A stretch of DNA of 55,076 nucleotides, counting the filler, from Basidioascus undulatus (Eukaryota), in the NCBI GenBank assembly GCA_000826855.1. It is 4 parts of 4 records of this genome, joined end to end, with 100 filler letters (N's around TTAATTAATTAA, not from the genome) between each part and the next. Parts side by side here need not be neighbours in the genome. Positions count along the whole stretch, not along the records: positions 1 to 13,724 come from JTLS01000790.1; positions 13,825 to 27,517 come from JTLS01000791.1; positions 27,618 to 41,272 come from JTLS01000792.1; positions 41,373 to 55,076 come from JTLS01000793.1. One strand, written 5' to 3'. The translations under genes and the position numbers were made by a program. The notes below the pieces were generated by a model. That model did not search any database, was not told the origin of the DNA, and saw only the letters and a program-made list of their open reading frames with translations. Below, piece after piece: positions 500-51,612 of the stretch (positions are counted from its first letter, which is position 1; each line of letters opens with the position of its first letter).

Positions 500-2567
500 T
501 CATGGGGAGGCACTGCTCAGGTACTGCCTGTTAGAAATCCTGTGGGTAGGTGGGTTGGTGCGGTGAGGTGCGAACCTGTGCGTGGCTGGTTCGGGAGATA
601 GAGGAGTCTGAGGGACAGGTTTGTCAAGTAAGTTTAGGAAGTGTGCTCCGGGCAGGACTTTTCATGGTGCCTTACGTGAAGGGACGGAGGCACCTTTGGG
701 GGAGAAAGCGGAGAAAGCTGCTGAGCGACAGGGGGGCAACGAACCAAAAACTGCATAACCAACCATGTTGCCCAGAAGAGCGGAAATCAAGGACTTCCAG
801 ATGTAGTATCTGTGCGGAGATGGTAACGTCGAGCTTCTTGCCATCCGATGGAGCATTTGCGCAGGCAGGAATATGTGCCCCGCAGAGATGTCGGCACCGA
901 GCATCATCCCGACTGGGACTGGCAAGAGAGATATCAGTAAACAACCAATGTACATGTTAGCCACGACGTCTGCCATCTCTGCACCATCAGTTTCTCTGCC
1001 CATTGGGAGGAGACCAGATGACTGACGGTCGAAACCCTTCGCTACGGCTCTTGTGCGGGAAGACAACCAGTCAATTATCTTTGATACTTTGCTTAGAAGT
1101 CAAAGCCTTACACGTCCAGATAGGCATATGCACCGCCAATATCTTGCTCGCCGTCTCGCGCGCCGAGACGCTTTGCCAGACTGCCAAGCAGACCAGGACC
1201 CGATCGCTCGGAGGAAACTTCCGTACGCCTCCATGCTCAGCCACATGGTCTGTAAGGTTGAGGGAAAGACCAGGGGTACTCACATCTGGTGCCATTGGGG
1301 AGTGACGGCCTTCGATACAGCGGCTGCTGCAACTCCTTCGGCATACTCACCACTGCGAGCGACCGCTCGTGACAAGCTTTAGCGTGTGCTATGAGGGTGT
1401 AGCTCACTGGAATATGTCGTTACTGCGTAGGAGGAGTTTGAGCGTGAACAGGAGGACATTAAGTTTTGTTTCGGCTTACATATGACCAGAATCGCAGCGT
1501 AGAACAGGGACCCAACCAAGTTTCACCAGAACACGACAAACCACTGCGAACTCCGCGATTCCATAAGCTGACAGGGGAGGGTAAACAATGTGGCACGTTG
1601 GAAAGAAGGCCCCAGAACGGCACGCGCCCTTTCACGACAGCCATCTGCATACGACAGCCATCTGCAACTCCGATATTGAGTGCTGACAGGTGGGGCGAAG
1701 TGTTGAAGGCTCATTGGGAGGCTCTGGTTACGCCACCAGAATACTAGTGTTTTTGTGCCTGATTATCTTTAGTGGTGCCTGGATAAAGACTCCAAGAAGG
1801 ACGCACCATCATGTTCGATGTCAGAAGCTCTTTGGCCGGTAAGTACGATCATCTAGTAACCTACGCTCAGCGACGGAAGATCCAGAGCAGGACCTGTATG
1901 ACCAATGCTCACGATCGGGCCCAACGGAAAGACGAAGGCAGCAATAACCTAGCGAGTATAAAGCTCAACTGCATGTCCTTCTATATACATTGAAGAGCTC
2001 ACCTTGAGCAGGCCCGGGTTCGTCTGCTTCAGCTCAGGCGAGCCGCATGCGATTAATTACCGGAGATTCAGATGCGAACGTCAGTTTCGACCACCCAGAT
2101 TCCACAACTTCGGCCCACCTGATAGAAGACCGCTCCGAGGGACAAAAACAGTCCAGCCAGCACGGCCTTGACGAACGTCGCAACCACGCCTTGAGCATGC
2201 TTTGCTACTGCCGAGCGCACGACTGCCTCGGCCGTGAGCTGGGACGTCAACGCGTCTGAGGGGGATGGCAATGGAGATGGTCGTCCTGTCGCTGGCGTGG
2301 AATACAGGAGGCTGGTTCGTAATGGGTAGAACGGATTTTGGGCGGAGGGTAGGGAAGTGAAAGTTAGGCATCCCTCTACCAGCAAAAGATCTGAACAGAA
2401 AGTGAAATGAGAGAAGGCTGAAAGGCTGTAGCTGCAAGCACAGTTAGTACTCGGACGATGCGGCCTTCTACCTGACCTCCCCCGCTGCTTATCGTACAAT
2501 CATGTGCACAACGTGTCCTGCGCACGCCGTAACCCGGAGGTGGATAAGAAGATGGTTCCGAGCTCAT
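500..2567 (-). pseudogene. Formate/nitrite transporter (FNT family), multi-exon, disrupted
   Basis: Spliced segments read DALTSQLTAEAVVRSAVAKH..TFVKAVLAGLFLSLG, SPELKQTNPGLLK, AFVFPLG, MIVLTGQ/ELLTSNMM, MAVVKGRVPFWGLLSN, WFVVFW*NLVGSLFYA, LVCLAVWQSVSARETASKILAVHMPIWT, GFD(H)VVANM and KSLISALLGNMVG, all typical FNT motifs. There is an in-frame TGA at 1523-1525 where Gly of G-N-x-x-G is expected, and one extra base at 1831-1833 in LTGQELLTSN. The 3' end is approximate. Confidence 0.85.
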
Positions 2568-2679
2568 GCAACTACTGCCCTGCGCCCACCTCGCGCACCT
2601 CGTTCACATTCCGTGCACTCGTGATCAGTCTTGCATGCGTCCCGTTCGAGGTTCGGGTTGAGTAGGAATACAGGATTTC

Positions 2680-5089
2680 CAGAAGAGTCCTGATGCAATT
2701 TCTGTGATCGTTCCTAAACATGAAATGTGAGGCAAAGTGAATATACGGCAGTTGACAGCATTGGGCGGGCAGTGTACTAAAAACAGTGCATGAGTGTTAT
2801 GCGATAACCTCCTAAAGGTGCAGTGGATGCGTTCAGGGTTGCGCCGAAAAGAATAGAAGACGGGGGCAGACCTGGGTGACGAAGGGCCCAATAAACGCGC
2901 TGGTTTATTGAAGATGCTGAATGCCTGTATAGAATATTGATTGAGCGAGGTAGCCCTCATACTGGTCAAAGTTGGACGCACCGCAAACCACAAGTACTCT
3001 TTTTCTCGAGGGCAGATCTCCGACATCATGATGGAAGAATAGGAGTAGTAGGGGCAGCTGGGAGAAAGAGGGAGTCATCAGATTTCAGGCCAGCACTGCA
3101 CCAGAAAATTGGTGGCACTCACACAAGGAATCCGTAGAACGCCTAATAGGCATAGATCTCTCACATCTTGCGAAGCCAAAGTCTGCAAAAACGCTTCAGC
3201 TGTCAGTACCAGTACCACCAAAGAAGTGGAGTTGATGGATTGACGTACTCTCAGTGCACCACCCAATCATTCCCCAAGCGGGGAGCAAGACGATGAAGGT
3301 GTTGGAGAGTTGGAAGGCCGTCTTCGTGTGTCAGCCCAGCCGCTGCTGGACTTGCCAGAAGGCGTACATCCCAATGACTTGCCTGTAATGTGATAGGGAT
3401 GGTCAGTTCCTCAGCACTTGTAAAGTTTCAGAACTGAAGAGTCAAGTACGCGGCGGCGGAAATCATCTGAAAGTAGATCTGCAGAAGTGCAGCAACGTAA
3501 ACTCCGATCCGGCCAAGAAATAGACATCACGAACCAACTTCGTGTTGTTGAAGAACACGATATCATCGGTGGGTGGAGTCAGTGAACGCGCCTTCACAAC
3601 GAGGGCTCGCATGAACTTGCGGTGTTCAGAGCGTCGCTGACCCAACCGGAATGCGTTAGTGGCATATATGAAGGTTCGAAAGGTCCAATGGCTTACCCAA
3701 GCAGGAAGTAAACAAACAAATACAGAGCCGTCTGGTTGAGGATGGGGAAGCTCTTCACTGCGTGAAGGACTTGTTTGCAGCCGATAGTAAGGTAGTTTGG
3801 CACCGGGCGGAAGGCGTTGCGTGGTGCGCCGCTGCTCACCGAAAACCCACGGGAGGGCAAAGACGAGCCACCATGCTCCAGTGAAGGCAATGACAGGCGA
3901 GATGCCCCAGTTGCTGCCAAGAAGTTGGTTACTCCGGGGGTCTACCGCCAGGCTGAAATGCAACTCACTCCTGCACAGTGGAACCGTCGGCGTGGATGGC
4001 TTTACAATGCCGAGGCCGATGCAGCAGGCCACAAAGAGTCCTGAATCAGTTTTAGTTGGAATGCATGATGAAAAGAAGCTCAAGCTTCAAACCTACCCAT
4101 GTGGCAGATGGCCTGTCTTGGGTTGAGGAAAAATGCAGAAAGGTGATCGAGCGACAGAGGCTCTGAAAACGTACGAAGGACATATCAGAGATGCGGTTAC
4201 AGTGGTAGGAGTGCAGGTCATGGTGCTCTCCTCTCCCTAATTTCACCCTCGAGAAGCCGCTTGTGGGATGCCTTAACGTCTGGCAGATCGCGAGCCAGTT
4301 CTGGGAGTGAGGTTCACCGTCATTACTTTCACCGTGGCTTAAAGTAGCGACTTTTGAAAGTTACCACGAGGAAACTGAACAAGAGTATTAGGTGTCAACC
4401 AAGCTCATCCGTAGCAACAGAAAGGACAACGTACTGCCGCGCTCCAGAACTTTACACAAGCCCTGTAAATCACCGAGAATCATTTGAGAACCTTTTGCCA
4501 CGATTAGGAAAGGAAATAGGCGCTGGTATGCGCAGGAACAATGAGGTACAGACCAAAAGCCACCAGCCACTTGTCCGGTGTATTGCACACCCAAGAAGCC
4601 AAACGACAGCCCCCACCCGAGTACGGAGAAGAAGACGGTGATCATTGGCCGCCTGAACAGTCCGAGTTAGCCAATGGCCGTGATCAGGAATGGACTAGAG
4701 CCTATACGTACCACGAGCCGTAATCGGCAAGACTCCCGAAGGAAAGGAAGAGGATCGACTGGATCGCGAACGAAAGGCCGGACGCGATGAGAACGGCTGA
4801 GGGATTTCTACGTCAGAGACAGGGTCTACAGACACGCAGCATCGTGGTTGCTCACCCGCAGTTTCCAACGTATTAGCTGCACTCAGTATGTAAGAAAGCA
4901 GTTACGCTGGAAGTGAGGAGAACCGACTCAGGAGTAGTAGACCAGATCTCCTTGTTCGTCGTTGTCACTCCCGTACCAGACTCCGCTACCGCCCGCACAT
5001 TGTAGGCCGGCAGCTACCCCTGCCTGCTCGTATCCTATATCGCGGGCCTCACTCCTTCCTTACGCTGAGTCCGCAGCCTTCAGATCCAT
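2680..5089 (-). pseudogene. Atg22-like MFS transporter, disrupted
   Basis: Segments TTNKEIWS/YY, RRPMITVFFSVLGWGLSFGFLGV, VIAFTGAWWLVFALPW..QRLPPGA/NYLTIGCKQV..LNQTALYLFVYFLLG and AFSIFNK..LLGP resemble the Atg22 family. TAA ten codons after the putative ATG, in-frame TAA at 4667-4669, frameshifts near 4940 and 3796-3798. Ends approximate. Confidence 0.75.
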
Positions 5090-5588
5090 AATTGACGTCT
5101 ACAACAACTCAAGTGCAGTGATATTGCCGTTCAAAGACTAGTTTCGGTCTCCCGGCTTGGCAATGACCTGGGAATCAAGCCGGTCGTCCGCGACCGTGAC
5201 GACTGCACTGCTCTTGCCCACTCGCTTCGACTGCTCGAGCGTGCCTGCGAAAGAATCAACGCAAAGATCCCGCCAAATTCTTAGACAAATTTAGTTGCCA
5301 GTTCGAACTGACGGTGTACACATGTTCAAGCAGGAAGCGCATGCCGCCTTCTGCATTCTGGTCAGGGAAGGCACCGTTTTTCCTTCGATTCCTTCCCTCG
5401 CTCGGCGAATATCACAACACCGACATGAAAGGAATCACGCTAAGCCAGAGATGGGTGGGTTCCGACTTTGTGCGGCAGGACAGTCAAGTATATCAATCAT
5501 CGGTATCTCAACCATCCTCATCCTTCATTCGCGTCTCAATTGTCCTTCTCTCAGTCAAAACCCTCCATTCCCATCAGGGCCCAGCCCT

Positions 5589-7580
5589 TCAAGCAGTCTG
5601 CTCCCTCTGGCCGCTGTACGCGCACCCGCCACTCGCATCAGCATCCGTCTCCCTCCTTCCCTCAAGGTTCAAAAGAGGCAAGACTCACTAAGCCCGGGTG
5701 GCATACACGCCGTCCTTGACGATCAAGTTCTCCGGGCGGATCGCCTTGCCCGTCAGGTACTGCTCGAGGATCTCGCGCGTGCCGGCCGCGTAGCGCGCTT
5801 GCGCGTCGAGAGTGGTGCCAGAGTCTGCGGGCAAGAGAGCAGTAGGAATAAGTGAGAAGTTTGGGGTGCAGTGGGGGGGAGGAGGGGGAGGTGAGGAAGA
5901 CGGACAGTGCGGGGTCATCGCGCTCCCGCCGCCGATGGGGTTCTGCAGCGTGCGCCAGGGGTGGTCCTTCGGCGCGGGCTGTTGGGGAGGTGTGGGTAAG
6001 CGACGTGTTCTTTGGTAGTGGGGAAGAGGAGCGGAACTCGCCTGGACGTTCCAGACGTCACCGCCGTAGCCGGAAACCTGGCCAGAGGCAACGGCCTCCT
6101 TGACGGCTGAGACAAGGGACCGAGGAACGAAATGTCAGCGATACGTTCGCCTGCCGGATGAAAGTATGGGATCGCCGCACCGTCCGCGTTAACAATCGCT
6201 CCACGAGCAGTGTTGATGATCCACTATCATTCCCAAACCCCTCCTGTCAGGCAAGAAACTTCAAAGGGAAAACCGCGAGTCGTAAGCAACATACCGCCCC
6301 CTTTTTGACCTTCCCAATGTTGTCCTTGTTGATCAAGTTGCGCGTCTTCTCATGCAAGGGCGCATTAACAGTGATTACGTCCGCCTGGCTGAGTAAATCG
6401 TCGAGGTCGTCGACCTTGCGTGCGCCGACCTTGGCCTCCGCCTCGCGCGGCAGCGGGGCGTAGTCGAAGTACAGGAGCTCTTTGCAGTCGAAGGGAACCT
6501 GCGCTCCACGCTATCAATCTGCTGTTATACTTGCCAGAACAAAGGAAGGGAAGATCAACACACCAGACGCTCCAGCACGCGGTATCCGATCCGGCCGGCA
6601 CCAATCGTCGCGACCACCTTGTTCTCGAGGTCGAACGCGCCGCGCGCGATATGCGCGACGTTCCAGTTGCCGTTGACGATCTGCTCATGCCTGTGTGAGG
6701 GGACAGTACCACGTAAGTTGAGCACACAGCCCAGAGGGCGGGGATGCGGAGCAATACGCCGAACGCAGGGACGAAGTTCCGGACGAGCTCAAGGATGGTG
6801 AGGATGACGTGCTAGAAATTGGTAGGACAGGTTCACTTATGTTCACAAGCTATCTCGGGGAAGCCACAATCCTCACTCACCTCCGCGACAGAGACGACGT
6901 TGGAGCCCGACACTTCCGCGACGATGACCTTATGCTCGTTCGCAGCGTTCAGATCAATCTTTCCGAATTAAGGATTCAGCTGAAGCACAGGGGAGTGATA
7001 CGAGATAGAGACGGACGTGGTCAGAGCCCTGGTTGCGGAGTCGAAGCGTCAGCTCATGCTTCAAGGGCGAGAAGGACGAGACAGAGCGTACGACACCGGC
7101 GGTGATGGCGATCTTGAGGTTCTTCGCCTTCTGGAGGATCTCACGCGTAGCGTAGCCGGGGTGGAAGGGGGTGGTAATCAAGACGTCGGCCTGATTAATT
7201 GAGGAAGGAACGGTGAGCAGTGCCGTGTAGAGGTCCCGTCAAGGGCAACGAGAGACGCACATCGCAATCTCCTTCTCGAACACGTTCCCGGGCCCGTCCT
7301 TCGAGTCGGTAACAACGTACTCGTGGCCCTGGCTCTCGAGCCAGTCGCGCAGGCCGAGCTGGTTCTCAATAGTACCGAGGAGGCGGGGCCTGTCCGTCCA
7401 GACATCGTCAGCCTCCCCAGGTGGCCGAGAAGCACTGGATGCTGCTCACTCCTCCTTGGCGGCCTGCCCGCCCTTGTAAAGGACCGCGAGGACCTTGATG
7501 TCGTTCTTGGGGGTCGAGGAGAACGCGCGAGCGGCAGTGCCGGCGCGGGGGAGGATGCGGGTCGAGGCGCGGGATAACAT
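5589..7580 (-). CDS. FDH1: NAD-dependent formate dehydrogenase with N-terminal mitochondrial-type presequence (multi-exon)
   Basis: Spliced product [136 protein letters not shown]. Catalytic motifs are present and no lesion was seen. Confidence 0.95.
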
Positions 7581-9124: not shown

Positions 9125-10778
9125 TCAGTCGACCTTCTGCCTCTTCTCCGCCCCCTTCCCCTCCTCCCCCTGCAGCGCATACTCCGCGCTCCGCTTCTCG
9201 CCCACGACCGCGTCGGCTGAGTCCTGCGCACTCTGCGTCTGTGGCTGCGTCTGCGGCAGCTGCTCTCCCTCCTCTGTTGCGGGCGCGGCGGCGGCGGTGC
9301 CAGGCTCCTTCCACCCCGCCTCCCACGCGCGATCGCGCCACCGGGCCGCCTCGATTCGCCAGCCCTCCGACTCGCGCTTCAGGTCCGCGTGCGCGTTGTC
9401 CATGAGGAGCTTTTCGAGGGTCCACTGCGGCGATGAATCTTCATGTTAGACTTTTGTTGTGATGAGGGAAGGGACGAGGGACGGGCAGGGAGGTACGAGA
9501 CGGACCTTCTCGATGTTGCTCGCCTCGTTCGCCTTGAGCTGCCGGATATACTCCGCCGCGCGCGCGAGAATCTGGCCCTTGTTCTTGTCACTGCCGGGGA
9601 CGATTCGCGCGAGTGCGTTGATGCCCTCGTTGATCGTCTCCCTGCGCCGGCGCTCGACCTCTTTCTGTTCATCCATCACATCCCTCGTCCATAAGCAACA
9701 CGCCTGCTTTCCTCAGGACCGGACAGAGCGGACACACGTGGTTGTCCTTCCTCGTCCGATTCCACTCCTCGTCCGTCGGCTCTGGCCCGCCGTCCTCGCC
9801 CGCCTGGCTCTTGCGCCCCCGCCGGCTGCGCGCCGGCGCGGGCGGTGGCGTCGCGGTCGCGTCCTGCGCGTGCGCGTGCGCGGCTTGGTCATCGCCGCCC
9901 AAGAGCTGCGCGTCGGTCGGCCGCGGGAAGGATGGGCTCGGGAAGATCGGGTCGCCGGACGCGCTGGAGGCGGCGGTGGGGAAGGTGGGGTGGTCCAGCG
10001 GTCTGTGAGGAGAAGGTGAGATGGAGACGAAGCGTTACTTGGGGGAGACGGACGCACGGAGAGCGGTGATGAGAGGTCGGACTGGTGTGCGTCAGCCCGA
10101 GAGAGTGGAGAGCATTACTGAATTGCAGGCTGTTGAACGCATCATGATAGAGGGTATCAGTGCATGGACGAAGGGGAAAGGGTACGCGATTGGAGGGGCG
10201 AGATGAGGTGTCGATTTGAGCAAGGCAGGATTTTCGCCGTGCCCAACGACGAGGACAACAGTCCACCACGCAGTGTCTGCGGTCGCCGCCAGCGACGTCA
10301 ACGACAATCACTTCGACGCTATCGGGGACGTCGTCGATCCCGTGCCCGCCGACGCCGACTTTCACGCGCCAAACGCCCCATCCCACACGTGACTGGCCCG
10401 ATTGTCGATAAAACCCGCCCAGAGCAAGGACGCGTCCCTCATCTCCACCCAGTACCTCCCGAGGTGCCCAGCCGCACGGGACGCACCCTGCGGAGTTGAG
10501 TAGGCCGGGGGGGAGGAGGTGGTTCGACTTGTTAGAGCTGCTCGAGCTGTTGCCGCTGCTTTTGCCGCTGCCGCCGCCGTTGAGCGGGGGGAGGCTGACG
10601 CCCTATTAAGCCGGGGGAAGGGGGGTCTGAGCGAGTTCGAAACACGACTGGGTATGACCGCGCAGGCGCGTACCTGGCCCGACGCGAGCGCCTGCAGCGC
10701 CGCCGCCGAGGATGCGGCGCTCGCAGAGACGCCGTGGGAGGCGGTCGCGCGCTCGTGAAGCTCGGGCAGACTCGACAT
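9125..10778 (-). CDS. CBF1: bHLH transcription factor, Cbf1 (centromere/promoter factor)-like
   Basis: EEWNRTRKDNH|KEVERRRRETINEGINALARIVPGSDKNKGQILARAAEYIRQLKANEASNIEK|WTLEKLLMD is the Cbf1-type bHLH-zipper. Upstream exons (MSSLPEL..ALASGQ|GVSLPPLNGG..NSAG) join in frame across a 484-nt intron at 10003-10486. Confidence 0.85.
10386..10393 (-). promoter_or_regulatory. Perfect Cbf1/CDEI-type E-box GTCACGTG inside the long intron of the Cbf1-like gene
   Basis: The + strand has CACGTGAC at 10386-10393, which is GTCACGTG on the - strand and matches the RTCACRTG consensus of yeast Cbf1. Function is inferred only. Confidence 0.35.
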
Positions 10779-13724: not shown

Positions 13725-13824
13725 NNNNNNNNNNNNNNNNNNNNNNNNNNNNNNNNNNNNNNNNNNNNTTAATTAATTAANNNNNNNNNNNNNNNNNNNN
13801 NNNNNNNNNNNNNNNNNNNNNNNN
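13725..13824. other. Assembly gap with artificial TTAATTAATTAA linker
   Basis: N44-TTAATTAATTAA-N44, identical at all three gaps; the spacer gives stops in all six frames. Confidence 0.97.
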
Positions 13825-16009
13825 TGGGAGATGGTGCGGAGGTGGTGGTGCGGCCGCGTGTGGATATGGCGGCGCGGCGGGGGCGGAGTGGGGGTGATGC
13901 GCGGCGGTTGGCGGGGGCGGTGAAGGATGATGTGCCTGCGGGTGTTGTGGAAGGGTATGGTTATGTTGCGGTGGTGGTTGTGGGTATTGGTGCGGCGGCA
14001 CCCCATGCGCCGCGATCGGCGGGCCCGGATGATAATGCACGGGCTGCATCGATCCTCCTCCTCCTCCGACCATGCCCTGGGGCGGGGACTGCATCCGCTG
14101 GCCCGACTGGCTCATCGCCCTCTGCGGCAAAGGCGCGAGCGGTCTCCTGAACCCGCCATCGGCGCCAGCGCTCCCGGAGCGCTCCTCCGCCGCCCCGCCA
14201 AAGCCGCCCGCGCCGGTGCTCGTGCGCTTGCGCGAGCCCGAACTCGTCCCCGTGCTCGGCCGCGGCTCGGGGTCAAACTCCCCGCCCCCGCCGCCGTCGT
14301 CGTCCGCTGCCGCGGCGGTGGACGCGCGCTTGGAAAGCCGCCGTCGGATCCGGATGTCTTTGCGGATGCGGATCTTGAGGCCTTGCCCGGCGAGGCATTG
14401 CGAGAGCTCGCTGGATCCTGTGTCCGGAGAAAGAGGTTCTGTCAGGAAAAGGAGGGAAGACGGCAGCAGGGAAAAGGAAGACGCACGCTCCATTCCGGGA
14501 AATCGCTTGGCGGAGAAGACGGTGAAGACATCGGAGTAAAGTGACTTGCAGTGATGGCATTTCCCGCTGCGAGGGTGGACGAGGTTTAGTCTGGCGGAGA
14601 AGGCAGGAGCCAGGGAAGACGTACTCGACAATCTCAAACAGTGAGAACTTTAGCCGAAAGCGCCCTTCCACCCTGACGGAGACGTCGCTGTCCGCAGGGC
14701 AACACAGCCCCTCGCGTCAGCCTGGAAGCAGGCGGAGATAGGAATAGAAAGCGGGACTCACGGAAAGACCGCAATGAGTATGTCGCTATGATCGATATCG
14801 CGCAGGCAGTACACGCTGCTCGTGACGTTGCCCGTCGTGTACCGCGTCTTGCTCTCCTTGAGCATGTGTAGCTCTTCGTCCTTATCCTCTTTCGCGAGCG
14901 AGCAGTAGATGAAGAAGTACGGGGACTGGAACGTAGAGTACGCGATGTCGCGCTTTTCGGACGCGGCGGCGGCGGAGGTGGAGGGGGAGGAGGGGGACGC
15001 GGTGGAGAAGACGCGGAGCTGGACTATAGGTGGGGGGTCGATAGGGCGACGGTCGGCTGGGGATTATGGGCGATGCGTGAGCGATATGGGACAGGGAAGG
15101 AGGGTCTGAGAAACACACCTTTCGAGCCGACACCGCACATCCGCGACTGCTTGGGCTGCTGCCGCATCGTGAGTTGGTACTCCCTGTTGGTGTTAGCGGG
15201 CATGGAGGAGAGACGGGGACGAGGGGACGAAGAGGAGGGGAAGGGGAAGGAACAGGAAGATGTTAGCTTGGTAAGTTGTGTTGGGATCTCATCATGGACA
15301 AAGGCAGAAGGGTCGCATCGCCCGACGATTCGGACAACGGTCGACTTAATCGAGCTCGAGCTTCGCTCAGACGGGCCGTCGCCAGATGTCAGCTGCCAGC
15401 CCGAGCGGCGGGCGGAGACGCGTGCAGGCTTGCAGCGGCAGAGGGGATCGCTCGTCCCAGAGCTCGCCCTCAAGTCAAGACCAGCGCGAAAATGAGCGAC
15501 GTGGCGATGGCCCAATTAATCAGATACGGAGCCCCTATAATCCGCGTGATAATCCCCGCGAGAAATGTGATGATCTGGTCTTGGGCGGGGAAAGGAACCG
15601 AAAGAAGACGCTCGAAAAGACGTCGGCGTCGACCGCTTCGGCCTCCGCCGTCTCCGCGTTCTTCGAACCTATGCCGCCATCTGCCACGGCTTCTTGAATC
15701 GCCGCAGACCCAGCCGCGCCAGAAATTCATATCTCGTGGGTAGAATCGCGTGCTGGCCATCCACGCACAACCCGGCCCGCGGCCAAGGGGCAGGTGTCCC
15801 GGCGGATGGCGCGATAGCAAAGGCTGCAGCACGAGGTGGAAGAGCGGGCCGATCTCGCCAAAGTTGGCCGAGAAGGAAGATCGCAGGGGAGCGGCGATGT
15901 GAAAGGTAGGGAAGAAGAAGACGCGACTGGGTGCCACTCACAGTCCATGGGTGCGCGACGGGTCTGCTTCGGACCCCGATGGCCGGGGGTAGGACGAGCT
16001 GGACGCCAT
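13825..16009 (-). CDS. Velvet-domain transcriptional regulator, 3'-truncated by gap
   Basis: EYQLTMRQQPKQSRMCGVGSK|ADRRPIDPPPIVQL..SPYFFIYCSL..TTGNVTSS..SVRVEGRFRLKFSLFEI..SDVFTVFSAKRFPGM..SSELSQCLAGQGLKIRIRKD is the velvet domain, followed by a Pro/His-rich tail. The predicted first exon (16009-15942) splices in frame over a 758-nt intron. Confidence 0.9.
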
Positions 16010-29509: not shown

Positions 29510-29757
29510 TGTGTGCTGAAGACGGAAGATGATTAAGGAGGGAGGAGTCTGTCGAGAGCAGCCGCACGAGATGGTTGGGAGAAGAGTAAGAACAGTCGAG
29601 AAGGGTGGAAGGGTGAAAAGAGTCGGGCACGGCTGGCTTGGTAAGCTTAAGCCCGCTGTTCTGCACAGGTTTTCATTGGCTGTGGGTAAGATGCAATTGC
29701 ACATCACCATTGCTGACGAGTCGAAGAATGAAGATCTGTGGTAGCCTGCGGCCAGAC

Positions 29758-30571: not shown

Positions 30572-30714
30572 GTCAGTCCATTATCTCCGTGAAGGTGTTC
30601 TCTAAGTTGTGCACGTTTCTGAAAGTAGAGCTCTCCACACAGCGACAGTTCTGAAAAGGCGGTGTGGAGCGATGAATAATGTTTAAGAGGCTGAATCAAC
30701 GCTAGAACAGCTTA

Positions 30715-31227
30715 CCTGAGCAGAAGCAATCCGGAAGAGCATACACCGCTCAGAAGAACAGAAACGGCAACCAAGATGTAGAGACCATGGCAGTCCACTT
30801 TACCCTGTGACACCGAAGGTATACACTCAGCTCCGCGCTGTGGACTCTATGGGAAGGAGTTACAGCGGCATAGGACTGCGGGATGTTCCCGAGGAGTCCG
30901 ATGAGACCACCAAAGTAGCATGCCGGGCAGTAGAGCAGCATAGGCCATCTCCATCGTCGCTTCCTGATTGACGGCGACCAAGAGTTAGTTGCAAAACCTT
31001 AAAACAAGAACCGAGGAACTCACCCAGTGATGATGCTCCAATCAAAGGCGAAGGTCCCAATAGCCTCCCGCAGCCAGAAGCCCAGCAAAGCGAAGATCAA
31101 TGAGATAAAGGCATCTGGAGAAGCTTGAGCAAGGACGTGAATAAGCGTCCGAACGGACGCCAAAGTCGTGATGGTCCTCCGTACTCTGGAATTTAGCGAG
31201 CGTCTCCGGAGAGTTCCAGTCAACCAT
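30715..31227 (-). pseudogene. Basidiomycete-type multi-pass membrane protein remnant
   Basis: MVDWNSPETLAK..DAFISLIFALLGFWLRE..FAFDWSIITG|..WPMLLY resembles the N-terminus of an uncharacterised basidiomycete membrane family. It appears truncated or degenerate downstream. Confidence 0.5.
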
Positions 31228-37721: not shown

Positions 37722-38379
37722 CTCTCTACGCGCTGCAGTTGTTTGTCAGGCTTGTAACGGGGACCTGGACGATGATCTGGTTACTCGCCGTCACCTACGC
37801 TTAAACTACGTCAGCGTCGTCGACTTCTCTTCACTCACGAGCGACCGCTTACCATCCCAACTTAATCACTTACGCTGTCCTTCGAGTACCACTGCGCACT
37901 TGGCTGTCTTCACATTAATGTTGACGACCTACTGGCGAGTCTTGTTTGTCAACTGTGTTGCCTTCCATTTGGGAGGTGCCTGTGGTGTTTGGAAAGTAAC
38001 CACACGGGCGATCACGCAATTTCAACTCCCAGAACCATATACCACGATCAGAGAAAGGGAAATGTACATGCGAAAACCTAACAGGCTGGGACGACAGAAA
38101 TTTAATGAAGAGCAGAATACTGGAAAGTGAGGTTGTGGCTGCCAGGCACGAGAGGGTGAAGGGGGAAATCGCGATCGGAGTACGTGAAATAACGTCTTGG
38201 GCCCTTACCCTCGAAGCGGGAATCGAAACGAGCTCCGAGGCGTAACACAAGGAAGCCCAACCGAAGGATAAGCTGAGAACGCGCCTTGGACGAGTCCTCG
38301 CCTAGGAAGACGCAAACGTTTCCATCAGTCTGTGCAATCCAGACACCCGCCGTGCAAGTAAAGGAGTCAAACGACACTC

Positions 38380-39613
38380 ACTGCTTTTGATTTCCCCAAC
38401 AATGAGCTCTAGGAGACCATTTCCCCAACCTTCCCAAGCCCCGGGCATCAACCTCCAGTCCAGCCTGTCCGAGCTCGACCCGGATGTTGAAACGCTGACG
38501 GACGGCGGCAGCGATGAGAATACTTCTTGTCGTTGCCATCCTGCAGGATATCGTTGTTGATGCGCTTCCTGTTGAAGCTGAACATGAGTCAACAGATGCT
38601 CTGTTCCAAGGGGAGAAAGTGACTTTCACATACGAGTTGTTCGTCCTCAACCATTACGCGCAATTGCTGCAACGCGCGCTTCAAGTTCTTCGCGCCTGCT
38701 TTGTTCTCGAGGTATCGCAAGGCGTCGTCCAGGAGGATCTGAAAAAAGGTGAACATCAGCTGCAGTACAATGTATGGTTGGGAGTCCATGAAAGGATGTG
38801 TATCGTGTCAGACAACAGCTTCTGCGCATACGGGAGCACACGCCGTGTAACACTTCTTCGACCCAAAGGTCTGCAGCGTTGGGCAGCCTCAAAAAGGCTG
38901 CCGTTGGGACTGGGAACAACGCTTGTCAGTCACCGTCTCATCGGAGAAGTGGGAGACACGCACTACCGTACGTCCCAGAGCACAACGTCAGGAGACGCGT
39001 TTACTGCTGTTTCGAATAGGCTACAGAAGAGAGGTGATGTGGTTTTCCATCGATCACTCTGCAATATAACATAAACAGAGAAGAAAGAGAAGAAGCGAAA
39101 CTGGCCCACACTTCCCCACCATGTTCGGGTATCAGATACCCATCCACCGTAGGAGGGCGCCGAACCCACTTCTCCCAGTGCAAGCTGATTTTCCTCTGGT
39201 TTTGATCGATACCGAGTCGCAGCTCCGCAGTGACATGGTGCCATAGCCATCGATAAGTCAGGAAGGGGGTGAAAGGCGAGAAAAGCACGCCCTTAACCAT
39301 AAGCGGACGGATCGTACGGAAGACCCATTCGCCGAGAGCGATCGAGAGCGCGCATACGACGACGCACCAGATGAGCAAAATTTCCAGGGCGATTAACGGT
39401 AGCATGAGTATCACAGATGTAGAAGTGAGGAGTACAGTGAAAATGAACGAGACGCCGAAGCCGAAGCCTGCGCCCAGTCGCAACGCAAGAGCCAAGCAGC
39501 CAGGAGGAGAAATGCGAATCGAATGTGTACCACGTATATATGTGAGCGGCGGATACTATAGAGCTTGTAAAGTGTGTGTTGCGAAGGCCATCACGGCGGC
39601 CAGAATGTCGGTC
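38380..39613 (-). pseudogene. Possible degenerate hypothetical membrane-protein gene
   Basis: The ATG frame (MTDILAAV..) hits TAG at 39556-39558, then continues in the same frame into a long hydrophobic segment (ORF 39001-39495). Further exon-like pieces lie downstream. No family recognised. Confidence 0.25.
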
Positions 39614-41272: not shown

Positions 41273-41372
41273 NNNNNNNNNNNNNNNNNNNNNNNNNNNN
41301 NNNNNNNNNNNNNNNNTTAATTAATTAANNNNNNNNNNNNNNNNNNNNNNNNNNNNNNNNNNNNNNNNNNNN
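41273..41372. other. Assembly gap with artificial linker
   Basis: N run with central TTAATTAATTAA. Confidence 0.97.
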
Positions 41373-41375
41373 CAG

Positions 41376-44300
41376 GAACGAGTTCTCGACTGTTGCCGCG
41401 TCGGATGAGGAGTCTGGCGGTGGTGATGTGAAGGTGCGTAGCAGTTGCGTGGGTCGAGGACTGTGAAGCGGCGCGCTGATGCAACCTGGTTGCAGTACCA
41501 CCTTGGCGCGAACTACGTCCGCCCGACCCCGTCCGGGAAGAAGGTCTCGCTCTCTCTCGTTGCGAACCCGTCCCACCTGGAGGCCGAGGACCCGGTCGTG
41601 CTCGGCAAGACGCGTGCGCTGCAGGTGAGCAAAGTGCAGACGGCTTGAACCCGACGTTGTTCACCATATTTGGCACGCAGTTCTTCGACAAGGACGAGGA
41701 GCGCAAGTCCGCGATGGGCCTGCTCCTCCACGGTGACGCTGCGTTCGCTGGACAGGGCGTCGTCTACGAGACTCTTGGCTTCCAGAAGTAGGTTGCTCAG
41801 TCTTTTCAAGTGGCGCAGTCGACGTGCTGACAGGGGTTTCCCTTTTCCAGCCTTCCCGGCTACGGTACCGGCGGTACTATTCACATCTGCGTGAACAACC
41901 AGATCGGCTTCACGACCGACCCCCGCTTCTCTCGCTCTAGTGCGTTATACCCTTGATGCAGCGATGTTAACTTTTCGCTCATCGTTTTCCCGTTCCTGTG
42001 CAGCCCCTTACCCTACCGACATCGCCAAGTTCATCGACGCGCCTGTCTTCCATGTCAACGCTGACAACGTCGAGTGCGTTATCTGTGCACCTGACTTGGA
42101 AGACCAACGCGGAGCTGACGCCGAGCAACCCTCAGGGCTGTCACCTTCGTCTGCCAGCTTGCCGCCGACTGGCGCGCGCGGTGGAAGAAGGACGTCGTCA
42201 TTGACCTCAGTCCGTCGACCTCGTCCATCTGCATTTGCTAGCGATGTCAATGCTGACTTGGCATGTCATTTCAACAGTCTGCTACCGTCGCCACGGCCAC
42301 AACGAGACGGACCAGCCGTCGTTCACCCAGCCTCGCATGTACAAGGCGATCGCGAAGCAGCCTACCGTGCTTAACCAGGCGAGTGTAATGTTCTGGTTCA
42401 TGCGTATGACCTGCTCACGAGAATCGAATGTCGTCTTGCAGTACACCGACTTCCTGCAGAACGAGGGCACGTTCACCAAGCAGGACACTGACGAGCACCA
42501 GAAGTGAGTTTTCTCAGCATGGCGTGATTCTGTGGATTCCGTTGCTCACATAGGTTGTTTCGCGCAGGTGGGTCTGGGGCCTGCTCGAGAAGGCGTTCCA
42601 GGACTCGAAGGAGTACAAGGCGCGTTGTGCGATCATGGACCCAGAATCTTCAGCGTATTGACATGACGTGACACGTACAGCCGAGCGCAAAGGAGTGGCT
42701 GTCTTCGGCTTGGGACGGCTTCCCCACTCCCTCCGAGCTTGCCCTGCTCGTCCTTCCCGTTCGCCCGACCGGCACCCGCGAGGAGACCCTTAAGCACATT
42801 GCTGAGGTCATCTCCTCCACGCCCGAGGTGCGTTTAATTTCCCCCTTCATCGGTACACGTCAAGCTCATGCGAACCGTTCGCCTGCAGAGCTTCACTCCT
42901 CACCGCAACCTCGCCCGTATTCTGAAGAACCGTGGCAAGGCTGTTGAGGAGGGCAAGGTGCGCTGAACGCCGATCTCCGGTTGTGCCCTTAGATTGACAG
43001 TTTTATTACAGGGCATCGACTGGAGCACTGCCGAGGCGCTCGCATTCGGCTCGCTCGCGCTCGAGGGCAACCACGTCCGCGTCTCCGGCCAGGACGTCGA
43101 GCGTGGCACCTTCTCGCAGCGTCACGCTGTCATCCACGATCAGAAAACGGGCGAGACCTACACCCCGCTCAATAACCTCGGCGGCGGCCAGGCGCCCGTG
43201 TCCATCTACAATTCGTCCTTGTCCGAGTTCGGCGTGCTCGGATTCGAGCTCGGCTACTCGCTCGTCTCGCCGGATTCCTTGACGATGTGGTACGTGGTAG
43301 ACCAGTTGCTGGCTGCCGAAGGGGTTGGGTGCTGAAAAGACGGATGGTGGTGGTGGTGAACAGGGAGGCGCAATTCGGTGACTTCGCCAACGGCGCCCAG
43401 GTCATGATTGACCAGTTCATTGCTTCTGGCGAGCGCAAGTGGCTGGTACGTGCTGTCTTCAGAGGAATCGGGCGCGATGCGTTTCCTAACTTAAGTTCGC
43501 GCAGCAACGGTCTGGCCTTGTCCTGTCCCTGCCGCACGGCTACGACGGCCAAGGTCCCGAGCACTCGTCGGGCCGTATCGAGCGCTTCCTGCAGCTTGTG
43601 TAGGTCTCGCTTTTTTCGATCGTCAGGTATGCGAATCTGATATTGTGGACTGGCAGCGACGACAACCCCCTCGTCTACCCGTCTGAGGAGCAGCTCATCC
43701 GCCAACACCAAGACTGCAACATGCAGGTCGTCTACCCTACCACCCCTGCCAACTACGTGCGTCTCTACCTCCTTTTCTTTGCGTTATGGCATCTATGAGC
43801 ACAGAGCGGACACTGACATGATCAAACACTGGTGCAGTTCCACGTCCTCCGTCGCCAAGTGCACCGCGGGTTCCGCAAGCCGCTCATTTGCTTCTTCTCC
43901 AAGTCCCTCCTCCGTCACCCCGAGGCGCGATCCGAACTGTCCGAGTTCGTCGGCAACACCAACTTCCAGCGGTACCTCCCCGAGACGCACCCGGAGTGCA
44001 TGGTGCCGGCCGAGCAGGTCCGCAGGCACATCCTCTGCTCGGGCCAGGTCTACCAAACGCTCGTGAAGGAGCGCGACGAGCGCGGGATCAAGGACATCGC
44101 CATCAGCCGCGTCGAGCAGCTCGTGCGTTTCTTGTTTCCGTTCTCAGGATAAGGCTCGGTTCGACAGACGCTGACTGTGTGCATGGACTGGGACGGTACC
44201 ATAGGCTCCCTTCCCGTACGACCTCATCAAGCCCCACCTCGACAAGTACCCCAACGCCGAACTCGTCTGGTCTCAGGAGGAGCCTGCGTAAGTATCGACA

Positions 44301-44624
44301 GTCGGCGCTTGCTTGGCTGCACCGTCGGCGGTCGCTGATCGGAGCGGAACATCAACCAGGAACAACGGCGCCTGGTCGTACGTCGCCCAACGGCTCATCG
44401 CGCTTGCGGACCAGACCGAGCACCACAAGGGCAAGACGTGCGTTCTTCTCTTTTATCCCATTTCTTTCGGACCGCTTCAGGTGCTGACGGGTTCTCTGTC
44501 CTGTTACAGGCCCGTGTACGCCGGCCGTATCCCGTCCTCGTCTGTTGCAACCGGCTCCAAGGCCGCGCACGCAGCCGAGGTCAAGCAGCTGCTGGATGAC
44601 GCGCTCACGGTCAAGTATGCTTGA
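41376..44624 (+). CDS. KGD1: 2-oxoglutarate dehydrogenase E1 component, 5'-truncated by gap
   Basis: [45 protein letters not shown] (ThDP motif), [112 protein letters not shown]. Confidence 0.97.
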
Positions 44625-46033: not shown

Positions 46034-48025
46034 ATGCGCTCGAGCTCGCTCCTTGCACTCACTCTCTTACCGGGCATTCTCGCGGCGGCTGTTCCTCCGC
46101 CGACACCAGTCAGGCAGGAGAAGCGAGCTCTCATAGATGCGCTCGCGTCCGCAACAGACATCCCCGACTCTGTCAGCTCGTACATTGCTTCGCTGCCCAC
46201 CGAGGCTTCGGGTGTTCTCCCTGTCTTCGATACCCTTCCAAGCCCCGAAGACGTTCAACAGGAGCTGGGGATCGACGACGAGCAGTTGGAAAATGTTCCT
46301 GTTCAAATTCTGAACATACCGTGGGTTTATTGCTTCTGAAAGGCCCTCCTCATTTGGTTGCTAAAGAGCTCTACACCAGCTCCTACGCCAACTGGACAGA
46401 CGGCGGCTGGTCGCTGCGCCTGCACGGCCAAGCGTACAAGCAACCGCCAGTAGACAACGAGACAATCGACCACGCCGCGTCCGTATTCCTCCCCGACCTC
46501 GACCAGTCCAACCTCACCCAGTCGCAACTCGCCCAGAGCCGCAACATCACGGCCTCGCTCCTCGCCATCCCGCAGTCCGGCCTGCGCATCAACTTCACCC
46601 TCGGCCGCCCCGAAAGCGGCGACGTCGTGCGAGATGTCGACTTCCCCTATGACACCGACGCCCGCGGCGAGTTCGACACCATGGTGCCGCTGGGCCGAGT
46701 GGAGAGCGTCCCAGATGGAAACTCGACAGACCAGGTTACCCAGCTCGACGTGTACTCGGACGATGCGACCAGTGCGTCTAACCCATCCACTCCGAGAGGA
46801 CCGACGCTAATGTCCTCCTGCCGCTGTAGCTGGAAATGCGACGGCGTATTTCGTTCCGCCCACTGGGATCACGATCGTCTCGTACGAGCTTTTCCAGCGT
46901 TGCCATCCTCCGGTTGTGCTGCCATCGCTAAACGAGCATGTCTCCCATCCCCAGCGACATCGACGACATCCTCCGCGTGACCCAAATCTACTCGCCCGAA
47001 GACGGTCTCCGCAACTCCTTCGCTTACGCCTACCAGCCCTGGAGCAACATGCCCGAGGTCTTCTCGGAATGGAACGCCAGAACACCGAACCTACACTTCC
47101 ACTATCTGACGACCACGCCCGAGCAGTTCGTCCTCGCTTACCTCTTTTCTGTAATTGCGTGGCTTCTAACTTGAGTTCAATCAGAGTGACCCGGGCATAC
47201 GTGTCGTTCACCTATGCCAACTATCCGCCAGGTTGCCGATTTCACGTGCTGCACTGTCCGGGTCGGCGCGCTGAAGCCGTAGGACTGTTTCAGGCTCGTT
47301 CGAAACCAGGCCGCTCAACTTCACCACCGTCGACCAAACCTTCTCCATCAGAAAAGTGACGCTGACCAAGATTTTCGAGCGAGTAGCCTTTCCGGAGAGA
47401 AGACAGCTGCCGGACGCTGACGAAAGCGCCTCGCAGGTCGTTCCCGCAGCGCAAGTTTGTGCTCATCGCTGACACCAGTAACCCGGACATCGCGAGCAGA
47501 ATTCCATTTATACCATCTGAGCGTGACTGAGTCTGAGGTTGATCTGCCCACAGATGACGGACTACTGCCTGATGGCGTCGACATTCCCCGACCGCGTTCA
47601 AGTTAGTCTTCCCGTCTCTTTCTCTGCAAACGCCCCGATCTGATAAAGCGATTCACAACCCAGTGCATTCTCCTTCGTAACACATCTGCGACGGATCCAC
47701 TCAACAAATTCCCGTACGACACGAGCGGCTTCGAGCCGCTCGACAACTCGACGTGGATGTTCTTCCGCGAGCCGGTGGGTTCCCCCTCTCGCACGACTCC
47801 ACTGCCTCTCTGAGCACCGCGAGGGTACAGAACGACATCATCAACCTCGACCTCGCTTCGGGACAGTGCCGGAACGAGTCCATCCCGCAGAACGTGACGT
47901 TCGGCTACCAGGACTTGCCGGACTCGCTGAGCGACATCACGGACAACGCTGCGACTGTGGGGAAGGTGTCGGTGTATTGGATGATGACGCTCTTGAGTGT
48001 GGCTATAGGGACCTTGCTCGTATAA
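46034..48025 (+). CDS. Secreted or membrane-anchored App1-domain (phosphatidate phosphatase-like) protein
   Basis: Signal peptide MRSSSLLALTLLPGILAA, then YANWTDGGWSLRLHG, ITIVS|DIDDILRVTQIY, HFHYLTTTPEQ, FPQRKFVLIADTSNPD, CILLRN, and a hydrophobic C-terminal tail (VSVYWMMTLLSVAIGTLLV*). Confidence 0.8.
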
Positions 48026-48899
48026 TGGAATGAATGAACGCTACGAAGAGTCTAATCCGTGCCAGACCGGACTGCCAGTGCTGATGCGTTCGCTGCAAAT
48101 CGGGTTCACCGTGCTGCCGTTGCTGAACGACAGCTGAGAAGCTGGCGCTATCCCTGATTGTGAGCATCCTATTTCAGGCTTTGTCTCGTTGTTCATTAGA
48201 TACTAAATGATGCCGTGCGAGAACAGCTTTATTACAGTCCCTTGGTAGCAGCATGTCGACTACATTCCAGCACTGAGCCCGGCCTAGCATGCTGGTGCCC
48301 TTCTATTCGACGAGACGATTGGGCTCAAATGCGGGCGATGTGTTTCAAGCGACGCTTGCATCTGCGAAGCGCTCGCATACTGTTAGAGCTCATACCTTTC
48401 CCGGGCGGGCGAGTTGCAAGAGGGCGCAGTCGTCTGATCAGGCGGTCTGCCCGAGATCTGTGGCACACTGGCGAAATCTCAACTCGGCGATGAATGAATT
48501 CGTTCGCCAACCTCTACATCGGGTTGGGCGGGAAAGAAGTAGCCGGGCGTTCGTAAGACTTTAGTTCCGCACAGAAAGCAGCGCAAACAAGCGCCTTCCA
48601 GGCCCCCTAATAGCTGTACATGAAGTGTGGGTTCTGCGTGTCTGTAAGGAGCCAGTGAGATGAGCAAAGCTTGATTTGAGAACACAGTGAAGATTGGACA
48701 AACGCACCCGCGATATCTTGCTGGCCCAGAATCTGACCTTCCCGCTCGCAATCCTCAGGAGACAAGCCCATATCGGCTTGAGCCTTGCGACGACGTGCGT
48801 TTGGAAAATATAGGAGTACCGCCAGACTTCAAGTGTGACGAAATCTTTCAGCTCTCAGCGGTCATGCTGAGCGGACGCGAGCAGGAGACCACTCACCGA

Positions 48900-49465
48900 G
48901 GATGAGGATACACTCTGCGCGGAAGCAGATGCAGCACCCGAGAGTCGCCGGGGTGTAGTGCGGGGCGTCCTTTTCCTCAAAGACCTGCGCTCCCGCCATC
49001 TATATTGGAGGCACAAGGGTTAATTAGGTGTGTGAGGCAGACAGAGAGAACGCTTACGTTTCCAGCGCAGTAGGCTATGAACACAAGCGATGTTGTGACC
49101 GTCTTCGTCGTCCGCCCAGCGATGTTGCTTGCTATAAGATAGAACGTCAGGAAGAGGGACAAGCTGAACGTGCACTACAATGCAAGGAAGTGTCAGCCCA
49201 CTTGAGCACAGGCAGTCAAGTGCAAACAAGATACTCGCATTCATGAGAAAGACTCTCCATCGTATCCAAGGGTTCTCGTACTGCGGCAAGCGTAGAAGAA
49301 ATAGCATCCTTATGAAAGATGGATGACCTGGGAGTGGGATAAGTAGACTGTAGTTTTCGGGCTAGGAGTGAGGTGTGCATGGGATGCAATGCGACGCCTC
49401 ACTCACCGAGAAAGCCATCAGCCACATCCGGAGGGTTTCCACCGGTTGCACACGAGTACAGCCTG
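48900..49465 (-). pseudogene. MFS allantoate permease (Dal5-like) fragment
   Basis: LFLTFYLIASNIAGRTTKTVTTSLVFIAYCAGN|MAGAQVF matches the SNxAGxTK..YxxGNxxGPQxF motif of this family. Only a short, degenerate piece is present. Confidence 0.7.
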
Positions 49466-51381
49466 TAAATTATGTATGGTTAGAACGAACTTCAACGAGA
49501 ACACAAGGGAGTAGAGATTTGCCTACCCCAATAAGACAGCAAACTTGTGAGCTTCAAGCGCGAGTCGTTGAGAGCGAGCGCCTATTGCGATTGGCTCTCC
49601 AAGCGAGCTCTGTCGCTTAGGTGTCGCATGAAGCAGGTGGCCGACAGTAAGACGGAAATTCAAGAGTTGTGTTCTATATTGAGTGGTCCGGTTTGCATGG
49701 GCATTTAAACACTTGCCCTGTTCTGGACCGAGTGATCACGAAAGGAGTCGCACCTGGACCGAGCATTCTCATCTCCAGCGTTCTTGATGGAGGTGAGCGT
49801 AGACTTTCCTCAAAATTATCAGGGTTCCCGTTTGACTTAGCATATTTGAACCTGTCTATAGACGAGCTGAACGGCCTGCGCGCCAACCAAAAACTGCTCG
49901 GCACGCTTGATGTTTCCCAGCTGAGGGGCACAGTGCTCGGGATGCACATCGTGAACGTGCGAGGGTATGATATCTTCTCTTGCCTGAGCACTACCTAGCT
50001 GAACTAATCTCGTATTAACTTTTCATCCCCGAGACTCGAGTTGAACAACAGCAACTACCCGACTTCTGCTAGGTCCGGTGGGCTGGTCGACCCCAACCGC
50101 ATCTGGCCCGGAAAGACACCTGCTCAAGGCGGAACGGTCCCCAAGCTTTGTCAATGAGCTTATCTCTAACCTCCGTGCTTTAACCCTTTCTAACGTTGTA
50201 CATTGGTGTCCCCAAAGTACGCTGTGGACCAACCTGCTTCGTGAAGGAAAGATACGCGATTGACCTGCATACCTCCACTACCGGTGCGACCGATGTTTCT
50301 CTTGAACCCGAACCAGACTGACCTATTTTCTGTAAGAGACGACTCCTCACTCTGCAATTATAAGGATACGGCTATGCCAGAGATCCCCCGTCTAGCGGGC
50401 CTCCTTGGGGCGGACTTCATCAAGGGTCAATGCTCTGTTCCTCTGAAGAGGCTTGCGAAGCACTGCTGATGCGTTTGTCTCCCGAAGAGGATGGAGGGGA
50501 GTAAAGGGCTCTTTCGGAGCCAGCTGGCTGCCGCGGGAGTCAAGGCAATCGCCGTACAATTGGGCGGCTCGAAGCACTGGACGACAGACTACATTCTGCG
50601 CACGCATGAGTTTCACCGTGTTCTCGCTCACGTCGGCATCCATATGCTGCCCAAATGGGTCACTACGCTTGATCAGGCCTGAAGGTTTAGTGCGTGGATT
50701 TATTTCTTCTTTCATTGCCATTATTGAGACATTATCTCATTCATGCTCTGAACTTCACAGCGCCAACACCTTCGATTCCACCACGGCCCCTCATGCCGGA
50801 TTCTGAGAGGCGGTCGTCAAGCCCTTGGACCAAGTCGCGTTGGGCGACTTGCTCGGAAACCTGCACGTATTGTGCATTCCATGATCTACGACCCCGCTCG
50901 CGAGCCTGGTGCTGAGCTTGTCTGGGTTGCTCGGGTCACGCGCAGGGCAACTCTTTGCATGCGGGTGTCGGTCTATAATGTAGCGAATATCTGAGCTACA
51001 TGTTTCTGCCTGTATGCTCATTTGCCATGCCTTTGTGGGTGCAAGAGCGAGTTTCCAACAACGTCTCATCGCGAGCATATCGTTGCTTTCAACTCTGAGC
51101 GCTTTGTTGCATAACACGAAGCAACCTGCCGTAAGGTCCTTCCTCTCTTTTATGTAGGTGTCACGAACTCTTTACTTGGCGGTTTCTGTAGAAACAAGCT
51201 TGCTCTGAAGTCGCCTATTGGTCGTGACTCGCGCCCGGTGAAGCGGATAAGATAGCCTATCCTACCACACTCACACTCCACCTTTCTTCCCATCCCACAT
51301 CTCCTCGCAGCGTATAACCCCGTCATTCCAACTATCACTTTATATTAACACTCCCAGGGCCCCTCCTGCACGTCTGAACGT

Positions 51382-51612
51382 ATGGCGCCAGTCACCTCGA
51401 ACTCGAGCTCTGAAGCGGCGCCCAAGAAGCGTATCACCCGCAGTCGAACCGATCAGTTTCCTCGGTACAAACGAATGTAGACGAATGTACTTTCTACTAA
51501 TGCGATGCTTCTCCCTTTGCTCTTAAGGATGTCTGCGCTGTCTGGAGAGGAAGGTCCAGTGCGAGGAGACGCGGCCGGTGTGTGCTGCATGCTCGCGACT
51601 GCGTCTGGATAC
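51382..51612 (+). pseudogene. Zn(II)2Cys6 transcription factor N-terminal remnant
   Basis: MAPVTSNSSSEAAPKKRITRSRT-G-CLRCLERKVQCEETRPVCAACSRLRLDT has five of six Cys. The intron donor at 51452 reads ATCAGT instead of GT, and there is no room for the rest of the gene before the convergent neighbour. Confidence 0.75.

Follow-up and report, generated by a model that had tools for sequence, protein, structure and literature searches.

Broken copies of accessory genes among intact genes on four contigs of the basidiomycete Basidioascus undulatus, probably duplicated pseudogenes of gene-family turnover

The window analyzed here is a stretch of 55,076 nucleotides from the basidiomycete Basidioascus undulatus (GCA_000826855.1; 32.1 Mb in 2992 contigs), in which eight recognizable genes are broken and lie among genes that are uninterrupted. 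A first-pass annotation had read this pattern as recent, function-biased genome erosion of the kind seen in host-dependent symbionts or parasites; the window is no single region of the genome but four separate contigs of about 13.7 kb, of which C2758 (positions 1–13724; contigs are given by our own handles), C2759 (second piece) and C2761 (fourth piece) are named and the third is presumably C2760. Genes of the window are intron-rich and fungal, and their best matches are basidiomycete. The eight relics are as follows.

758..2299, minus strand: formate/nitrite transporter (FNT) pseudogene (PF01226; spliced alignment to the C2834 paralogue; 3′ limit provisional)
~2700..5090, ends approximate, minus strand: Atg22-like MFS pseudogene of a second ('B') subfamily (weak PF11700 match, E 6.6e-5 to 4.6e-4; comparison with the C112 copy)
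18917..20898, plus strand: copper amine oxidase pseudogene (profile alignment; 5′ relic matched at 96% by a copy on C34)
28896..29510, minus strand: Arr2/Ych1-like reductase pseudogene (homologue and paralogue alignment; unitigs identical)
29758..30633, plus strand: Acr3 arsenite-efflux pseudogene, middle part (spliced alignment to a paralogue; unitigs identical)
30631..31227, minus strand: broken fungal multi-pass membrane protein gene, 5′ part (comparison with its copy; no Pfam family of substance)
48607..49230, minus strand: Dal5-like permease relic, C-terminal part (alignment)
51382..51890, plus strand: Zn2Cys6 factor relic, truncated (PF00172)

Lesions were called with a purpose-written spliced, frameshift-aware aligner that has no published benchmark; an alignment or paralogue comparison stands behind seven of the eight calls, and the Zn2Cys6 relic, with no homologue alignment, was judged from its motif. 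Stops, frameshifts, dead splice sites or deletions are found in all eight genes, as had been proposed, and the variety of lesions first described is borne out, with nonsense codons, an ACG start, AT donors, 1-nt indels and large deletions all represented.

The expected start of the FNT gene lacks an in-frame ATG and reads ACG at ~2299 (read by eye). Compared with its C2834 paralogue (69% identity), the gene has the acceptor TAA at 2057 and a +1 frameshift at 1831; a TGA at 1525 stands where both paralogues encode Gly, and further on the acceptor near 1363 is non-canonical and a deletion at 1198 shifts the frame. The Atg22-like gene changes frame at ~4585 and ~3803, where the C112 copy holds one frame, and again at 2903, which with a TGA at 3333 (Trp in the C112 copy) amounts to at least three frameshifts and one stop; a homologue search with the Atg22-like piece returned zero matches, so this B subfamily has no outside reference. 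The amine oxidase, whose best matches are in Tremellomycetes (72–74% over 69 aa), aligns only to positions 278–545 of a 679-position profile of 21 homologues: little of the N-terminal half remains, the last ~134 positions are missing, and two frameshifts fall in the aligned part. The loss of most of its length, together with the 96% copy of its 5′ relic on C34, which carries four frameshifts, points to an older death.

Three relics lie side by side on the third contig. In Arr2, whose best match is from Auriscalpium (54%), a 1-nt deletion (−1) falls at 29458 and an AT donor at 29196. Acr3 retains residues 123–291 of 404 and carries frameshifts at 29903, 30253 and 30466 and AT donors at 30178 and 30354. 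Acr3 and the convergent membrane gene both lost their 3′ ends in a single deletion at 30631–30633, which left an intron of the former fused to an exon of the latter, so the two truncations are one event. Introns sit at paralogous positions in the FNT, Acr3 and Arr2 relics. Elsewhere on this contig, the segment 27618–28800 recurs at 89% identity on C923 and overlaps the end of C1028 by 85 identical nt.

On the fourth contig, the permease relic, which we take to be Dal5-like from a motif, aligns only to positions 405–468 of 522, with an additional frameshift near 48800 (by eye). At the expected site of its 5′ part, 49400–50700, protein-like frames run on both strands and are possibly another relic; this interval has zero Pfam matches, and its open reading frame (ORF) at 49651–49995 has zero atlas matches. 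The Zn2Cys6 relic has AT at both donors, 51452 and 51609, and its frame enters the LYC1 gene, leaving no space for the remaining protein.

Read data were compared for the third contig, and so for three of the eight genes. Unitigs of runs X1 and X2 are identical to 28825–29797 and 29770–30742 (0 differences, 0 gaps) and span the two Arr2 lesions, the five in Acr3 and the two deletion junctions. The read check suggested at the outset thus holds for Arr2, Acr3 and the membrane gene, whose lesions match exactly; the identity excludes consensus error at these sites, yet it supplies no second individual, as either run may be the assembly source. Several of the lesions are 1-nt indels in short base runs, as expected if the relics were assembly or consensus errors, and reads reach only three genes; with the unitigs identical throughout 28825–30742, the neighbours and 14/14 proteasome genes clean, and most relics combining several lesions of differing kinds, that explanation is hardly credible for the set. 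A further run, X3, labelled 'DNA?', has contigs that skip GT..AG introns and so behaves as RNA. Its contigs leave most of Acr3 and the membrane gene uncovered and cover Arr2 thinly, an observation not used as evidence.

A second proposed check, for intact copies elsewhere, gives such copies at the family level for six of the eight genes (FNT, Atg22, amine oxidase, Arr2, Acr3, and Dal5), although for amine oxidase and Atg22 they belong to another subfamily only; it fails for the membrane gene, whose one other copy found is broken. The C2834 FNT gene is lesion-free across 261 modelled residues and 13 introns (the model stops before the last exon), and the C2269 copy has two non-canonical acceptors. 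The Atg22 gene on C2858 has an uninterrupted model and belongs to a distant subfamily. Amine-oxidase loci number nine in the genome; C2254 and C2505 are clean, C2347, C2860, and C279 are clearly broken, and C392, C2792, and C2555 are partial or weakly aligned. Dal5-like copies are clean on C2501 and C2903 and broken on C1240 and C254, with one doubtful frameshift on C2334; that on C2011 ends at a contig edge and was excluded from the count.

Intact Acr3 genes are found on C1433 and C2284, and at C2284 6715–11559 intact ArsH-like, Arr2 and Acr3 genes (the ArsH name, given from a motif, is putative) stand side by side as an arsenic-resistance cluster. The Arr2–Acr3 pair of the window resembles a second such cassette in decay, and Arr2 has a third copy, on C923, that is also broken. 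Over 153 codons, the window Acr3 differs from the C1433 gene with synonymous divergence (dS) 0.43, non-synonymous divergence (dN) 0.061 and dN/dS 0.14, against 0.09 for the intact pair (C1433 and C2284), which suggests that the copy was functional for most of its life and died late. The proposal that the losses are recent fits some copies only, as lesion loads range from two small changes to the disappearance of most of the gene. Repeat-induced point mutation is not favoured as the cause of the lesions, the share of C>T/G>A changes being equal on the dead Acr3 branch (18/26) and the intact one (12/17). No Acr3 relatives were found in the scanned prokaryote genomes. Short CCTAA/CCCAA-type telomere-like repeats lie immediately upstream of the intact Acr3 on C1433 (3750–3856).

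The relics are probably duplicated (non-processed) pseudogenes that arose by fast birth-and-death of accessory families in an intron-rich basidiomycete of saprotroph type. The kind of feature is ordinary and its load is above usual; dependence on a host is not supported.

Between the relics lie the following genes, modelled with a self-trained, unbenchmarked gene finder that is biased to genes rich in G+C at third codon positions (GC3) and sometimes skips small exons, and the artificial spacers that join the contigs.

5589..7580, minus strand: formate dehydrogenase (presumably, from motifs), intact, 13 exons, 391 aa (self-trained gene model)
9125..10778, minus strand: bHLH factor, intact, 339 aa, which we take to be Cbf1-like (gene model)
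13725..13824: artificial spacer between contigs, N44 + 12 nt + N44
13825..15203, minus strand: velvet gene, uninterrupted, cut by the contig end (PF11754; gene model)
23702..27517, minus strand: DNA polymerase X, uninterrupted, cut by the contig end (PF14792, PF10391; gene model)
27518..27617: artificial spacer between contigs, N44 + 12 nt + N44
31996..33855, plus strand: CCCH/CCHC zinc-finger gene, presumably Yth1/CPSF30-like, intact and spliced (GT..AG joints in run X3; gene model)
35394..37804, plus strand: MFS transporter, no lesion seen (spliced in run X3; gene model)
38093..39499, extent approximate, minus strand: spliced gene without a Pfam family (run X3 joints; 75% copy on C2360)
41273..41372: artificial spacer between contigs, N44 + 12 nt + N44
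41373..44624, plus strand: 2-oxoglutarate dehydrogenase E1, intact, 5′ part cut by the contig end (second intact copy on C2327)
46034..48025, plus strand: APP1-domain gene, uninterrupted (PF09949; gene model)
51889..53220, minus strand: LYC1-type GNAT gene, intact, 396 aa (PF22998; gene model)
53470..55076, plus strand: cation-efflux transporter, uninterrupted, cut by the window end (PF01545; gene model)

Ten of these neighbours have uninterrupted spliced models, which confirms that they are free of lesions. They had been called housekeeping genes, a description that suits the intact core genes and not the formate dehydrogenase, the MFS transporter and the cation-efflux transporter, which serve transport and detoxification and are intact as well. 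The two 2-oxoglutarate dehydrogenase E1 genes, in the window and on C2327, are 73% identical and share introns; fungi usually carry one copy. Relatives of LYC1 were not found in the scanned metagenomes. Unitigs of the DNA runs include a form of the 38093–39499 gene that skips 38519–39113, and probable further genes without a confident Pfam family lie at 21715–22509, 13067–13724, and 45003–45326.

The neighbours do stand out by GC3, at 0.77–0.88 against 0.62–0.75 for four relics (Acr3, FNT, amine oxidase, and Arr2), as the first reading had it, but the contrast is mostly one of gene class: intact paralogues range over 0.64–0.84, as low as relics, and only the Arr2 relic falls clearly under its paralogue (0.62 vs 0.72), so GC3 marks the class of gene and was rejected as a marker of decay. 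The absence of transposon remnants likewise holds in the window from 11 kb onward, where 449 ORFs contain no transposon domain, but not for the genome, which has 21 reverse-transcriptase matches. One of these matches (G000:C413 2529–3011) lies within an open frame of 1509 aa and is possibly an intact retroelement.

Whether the damage is biased by function was judged against controls outside the window. Proteasome subunits, one set on 14 contigs, have lesions in 0/14, and core loci as a whole are broken in 0/15 against 14/40 accessory loci (Fisher p 0.006). The accessory tally comprises amine oxidase (6/8 broken), FNT (1/2), Atg22 (1/2), Acr3 (0/2), Arr2 (1/2), the membrane gene (1/1), Dal5 (2/5), AA9 (2/11), and sugar transporters (0/7); the C34 fragment, nitrate reductase and ArsH are left uncounted. 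Relics in the window guided the choice of most of these families (ascertainment bias), and the two chosen independently of it, AA9 and sugar transporters, give 2/18 against 0/15 (p 0.49). AA9 lytic polysaccharide monooxygenases (LPMOs) have 25 matches on 16 contigs, and 8 of the 11 modelled are clean; of the others, the C836 gene is broken, that on C2305 carries a single frameshift, and that on C1212, with one doubtful splice site, was scored as not broken. All seven sugar transporters counted are clean, scoring having been limited to 9 of 192 candidates, best first. A nitrate-reductase-like model of 935 aa lies on C2645.

Broken copies do therefore concentrate in accessory families, as the first-pass annotation had claimed, but this is no mark of a symbiont: the pseudogenes of eight yeasts are reported to derive for the most part from duplicated genes, with a bias to transporters (PMC2876123). 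Function-biased erosion after a shift to dependence on a host, as symbiont or parasite, would agree with the transport, amine-use and metalloid roles of the broken genes, with a clean core control beside damaged accessory loci (a pattern not specific to symbionts), and with the lifestyle-linked pseudogenes reported for the biotroph Cladosporium fulvum (PMC3510045). We consider it unlikely. An arsenic-resistance cluster, FNT, nitrate reductase, sugar transporters, and at least eight AA9 LPMOs are intact; outright loss of a function was not found, possible losses being at subfamily level only; 2-oxoglutarate dehydrogenase E1 is kept in two intact copies; and two whole-genome runs of 34.6 and 34.3 Mb leave scant room for host DNA beside the 32.1 Mb assembly, a weak point as filters apply.

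The duplicates could also be homeologues, dying by fractionation after hybridisation or whole-genome duplication, and several window segments do have copies at 66–96% DNA identity. Those identities are scattered, with no single peak, and the partner contigs share single genes or the Arr2–Acr3 pair rather than any longer gene order; the proteasome is present as one set and the CCCH and MFS genes are single-copy. This origin is very improbable.

The load outside the window was estimated from a random sample of thirty-three 10-kb pieces of other contigs (330 kb), which contain 68 gene models (one per ~4.9 kb) and are 29% coding, against 10 models and 25% in the window; these densities are lower bounds, because the gene finder prefers genes of high GC3 and overlooked one or more spliced genes. 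Among the best 300 of 2914 non-genic ORFs in the sample there is one clear relic, of a BTB gene; the remainder include three probably intact missed genes, small or edge genes and a virus-like block. Under the same ORF filter, clear Pfam-recognisable relics number four in the 55 kb of the window against one in 330 kb (p 0.002, or 0.005 with one doubtful gene scored as broken), which establishes enrichment in the window and not a genome-wide rate, as the filter recovers 4 of the 8 relics and the window had been singled out. A tblastn search with 215 modelled proteins, run on non-genic sequence from the random sample and from six larger stretches, returned no relics, with references too few for a density. 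At C2820 1189–9942, long intronless ORFs encode a family-B DNA polymerase, RNA polymerase Rpb1 domain 2, an AAA/DUF5906 protein and kinases; this block looks like a giant-virus-like insert in the fungal assembly.

Several points weigh against plain birth-and-death. The 14/40 broken accessory loci are many for simple turnover, and modelled coding sequence fills only 29% of the random sample. In a quick tree, the clade that holds the window amine oxidase has four placed members, every one of them broken, and the two intact genes form a separate clade; the close Atg22-B copy on C112 is broken too, which leaves both B copies dead; and the only other copy found of the membrane gene, on C923, has no start codon and further damage, so that both of its copies are dead as well. 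Given the dead Atg22-B and membrane-gene copies, some functions may truly have been lost. The dN/dS comparison, which the first-pass annotation had recommended, gives 0.14 for the dead Acr3 and 0.09 for the intact pair; the excess of non-synonymous change on the dead branch (16 synonymous to 10 non-synonymous, against 13 to 4) is not significant (p 0.34). The load was judged within this one genome. Finally, retention of nitrate reductase does not by itself exclude a host, because an obligate fungal symbiont, the yeast-like symbiont of aphids, can keep nitrate reduction (PMC3673620).

These points could be met by a lineage-wide wave of relaxed selection or strong drift (through a bottleneck, clonality or a narrowed free-living niche) that strips a once larger accessory repertoire, the survivors being copies not yet lost. 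The contrast between accessory and core loci, the death of whole subfamilies, the sparse models of the random pieces and several copies with only two or three lesions (C2269 FNT, C2347 amine oxidase, and C836 AA9) speak for such a wave. The selection of most families through the window, the weak contrast in the two families not so chosen (in which best-scoring copies were favoured), the one clear relic of the random sample, the status of the coding density as a lower bound and the wide spread of decay stages speak against it, and we regard it as possible but distinctly less probable than turnover. In its strongest form, which we hold equally doubtful, a basidiomycete with a saprotroph-type toolkit would be midway through a host-independent, genome-wide collapse of its accessory repertoire, with as many as about one in three accessory paralogues dead, whole subfamilies gone (one amine-oxidase clade and Atg22-B), and much of the non-coding half of the genome made of gene relics rather than transposons; if true, such a collapse would parallel, in a free-living eukaryote, the early erosion of endosymbiont genomes.

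Under birth-and-death, the reading that we prefer, old and newer dispersed duplications would make accessory paralogues, which would remain under purifying selection for a time, as the Acr3 comparison shows for that copy, until redundancy or a narrowed need released them. Ordinary mutations would then accumulate, G:C to A:T changes killing GT donors and Trp codons alongside 1-nt indels and deletions, and one deletion could strike two convergent genes at once, as the Acr3–membrane gene junction demonstrates. Usually one or two copies per family would stay intact, as observed in six families, while some subfamilies would die out wholly, and the window would sample four unlinked contigs that are richer in relics than average, in a genome whose load of them is high. 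Broken transport and detoxification genes should accordingly be taken with caution, and not as a lifestyle signature until paralogues have been checked, and gene counts of such genomes will depend on how relics are handled. Should the load prove genome-wide, the species would offer a direct test of whether drift or niche narrowing, with no host, yields symbiont-like decay in a fungus, and many neutral sequences from which to derive basidiomycete mutation and deletion spectra.

The literature searched, which was mostly without subscription papers and was not searched by organism, yielded no account of heavy pseudogenisation in a saprotrophic basidiomycete. The closest parallel is with the pseudogenes of hemiascomycete yeasts (PMC2876123), which are likewise for the most part duplicates in decay whose paralogue is active, with a bias to transporters and the cell periphery, and which also show re-duplication after death, here seen in the C34 amine-oxidase copy; B. 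undulatus differs in being an intron-rich basidiomycete, in its splice-site lesions and in having its relics among core genes on four contigs. The filamentous fungus Fusarium graminearum has 436 pseudogenes with paralogues and 544 putative unitary ones (PMC12311193), a similar mixture of duplicated and unitary-like relics. This corresponds to about one relic per 40 kb, against one per 7 kb here, in a selected window and not genome-wide. Accessory families that are partly pseudogenised while the family survives are common to B. undulatus and C. fulvum (PMC3510045), although here there is no evidence of a host or of biotrophy and most AA9 genes tested are clean. The sparing of the core and the damage to accessory genes are shared with host-restricted symbionts such as the aphid yeast-like symbiont (PMC3673620), from which B. 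undulatus is set apart by the retention of functions through paralogues, with no pathway-level loss observed.

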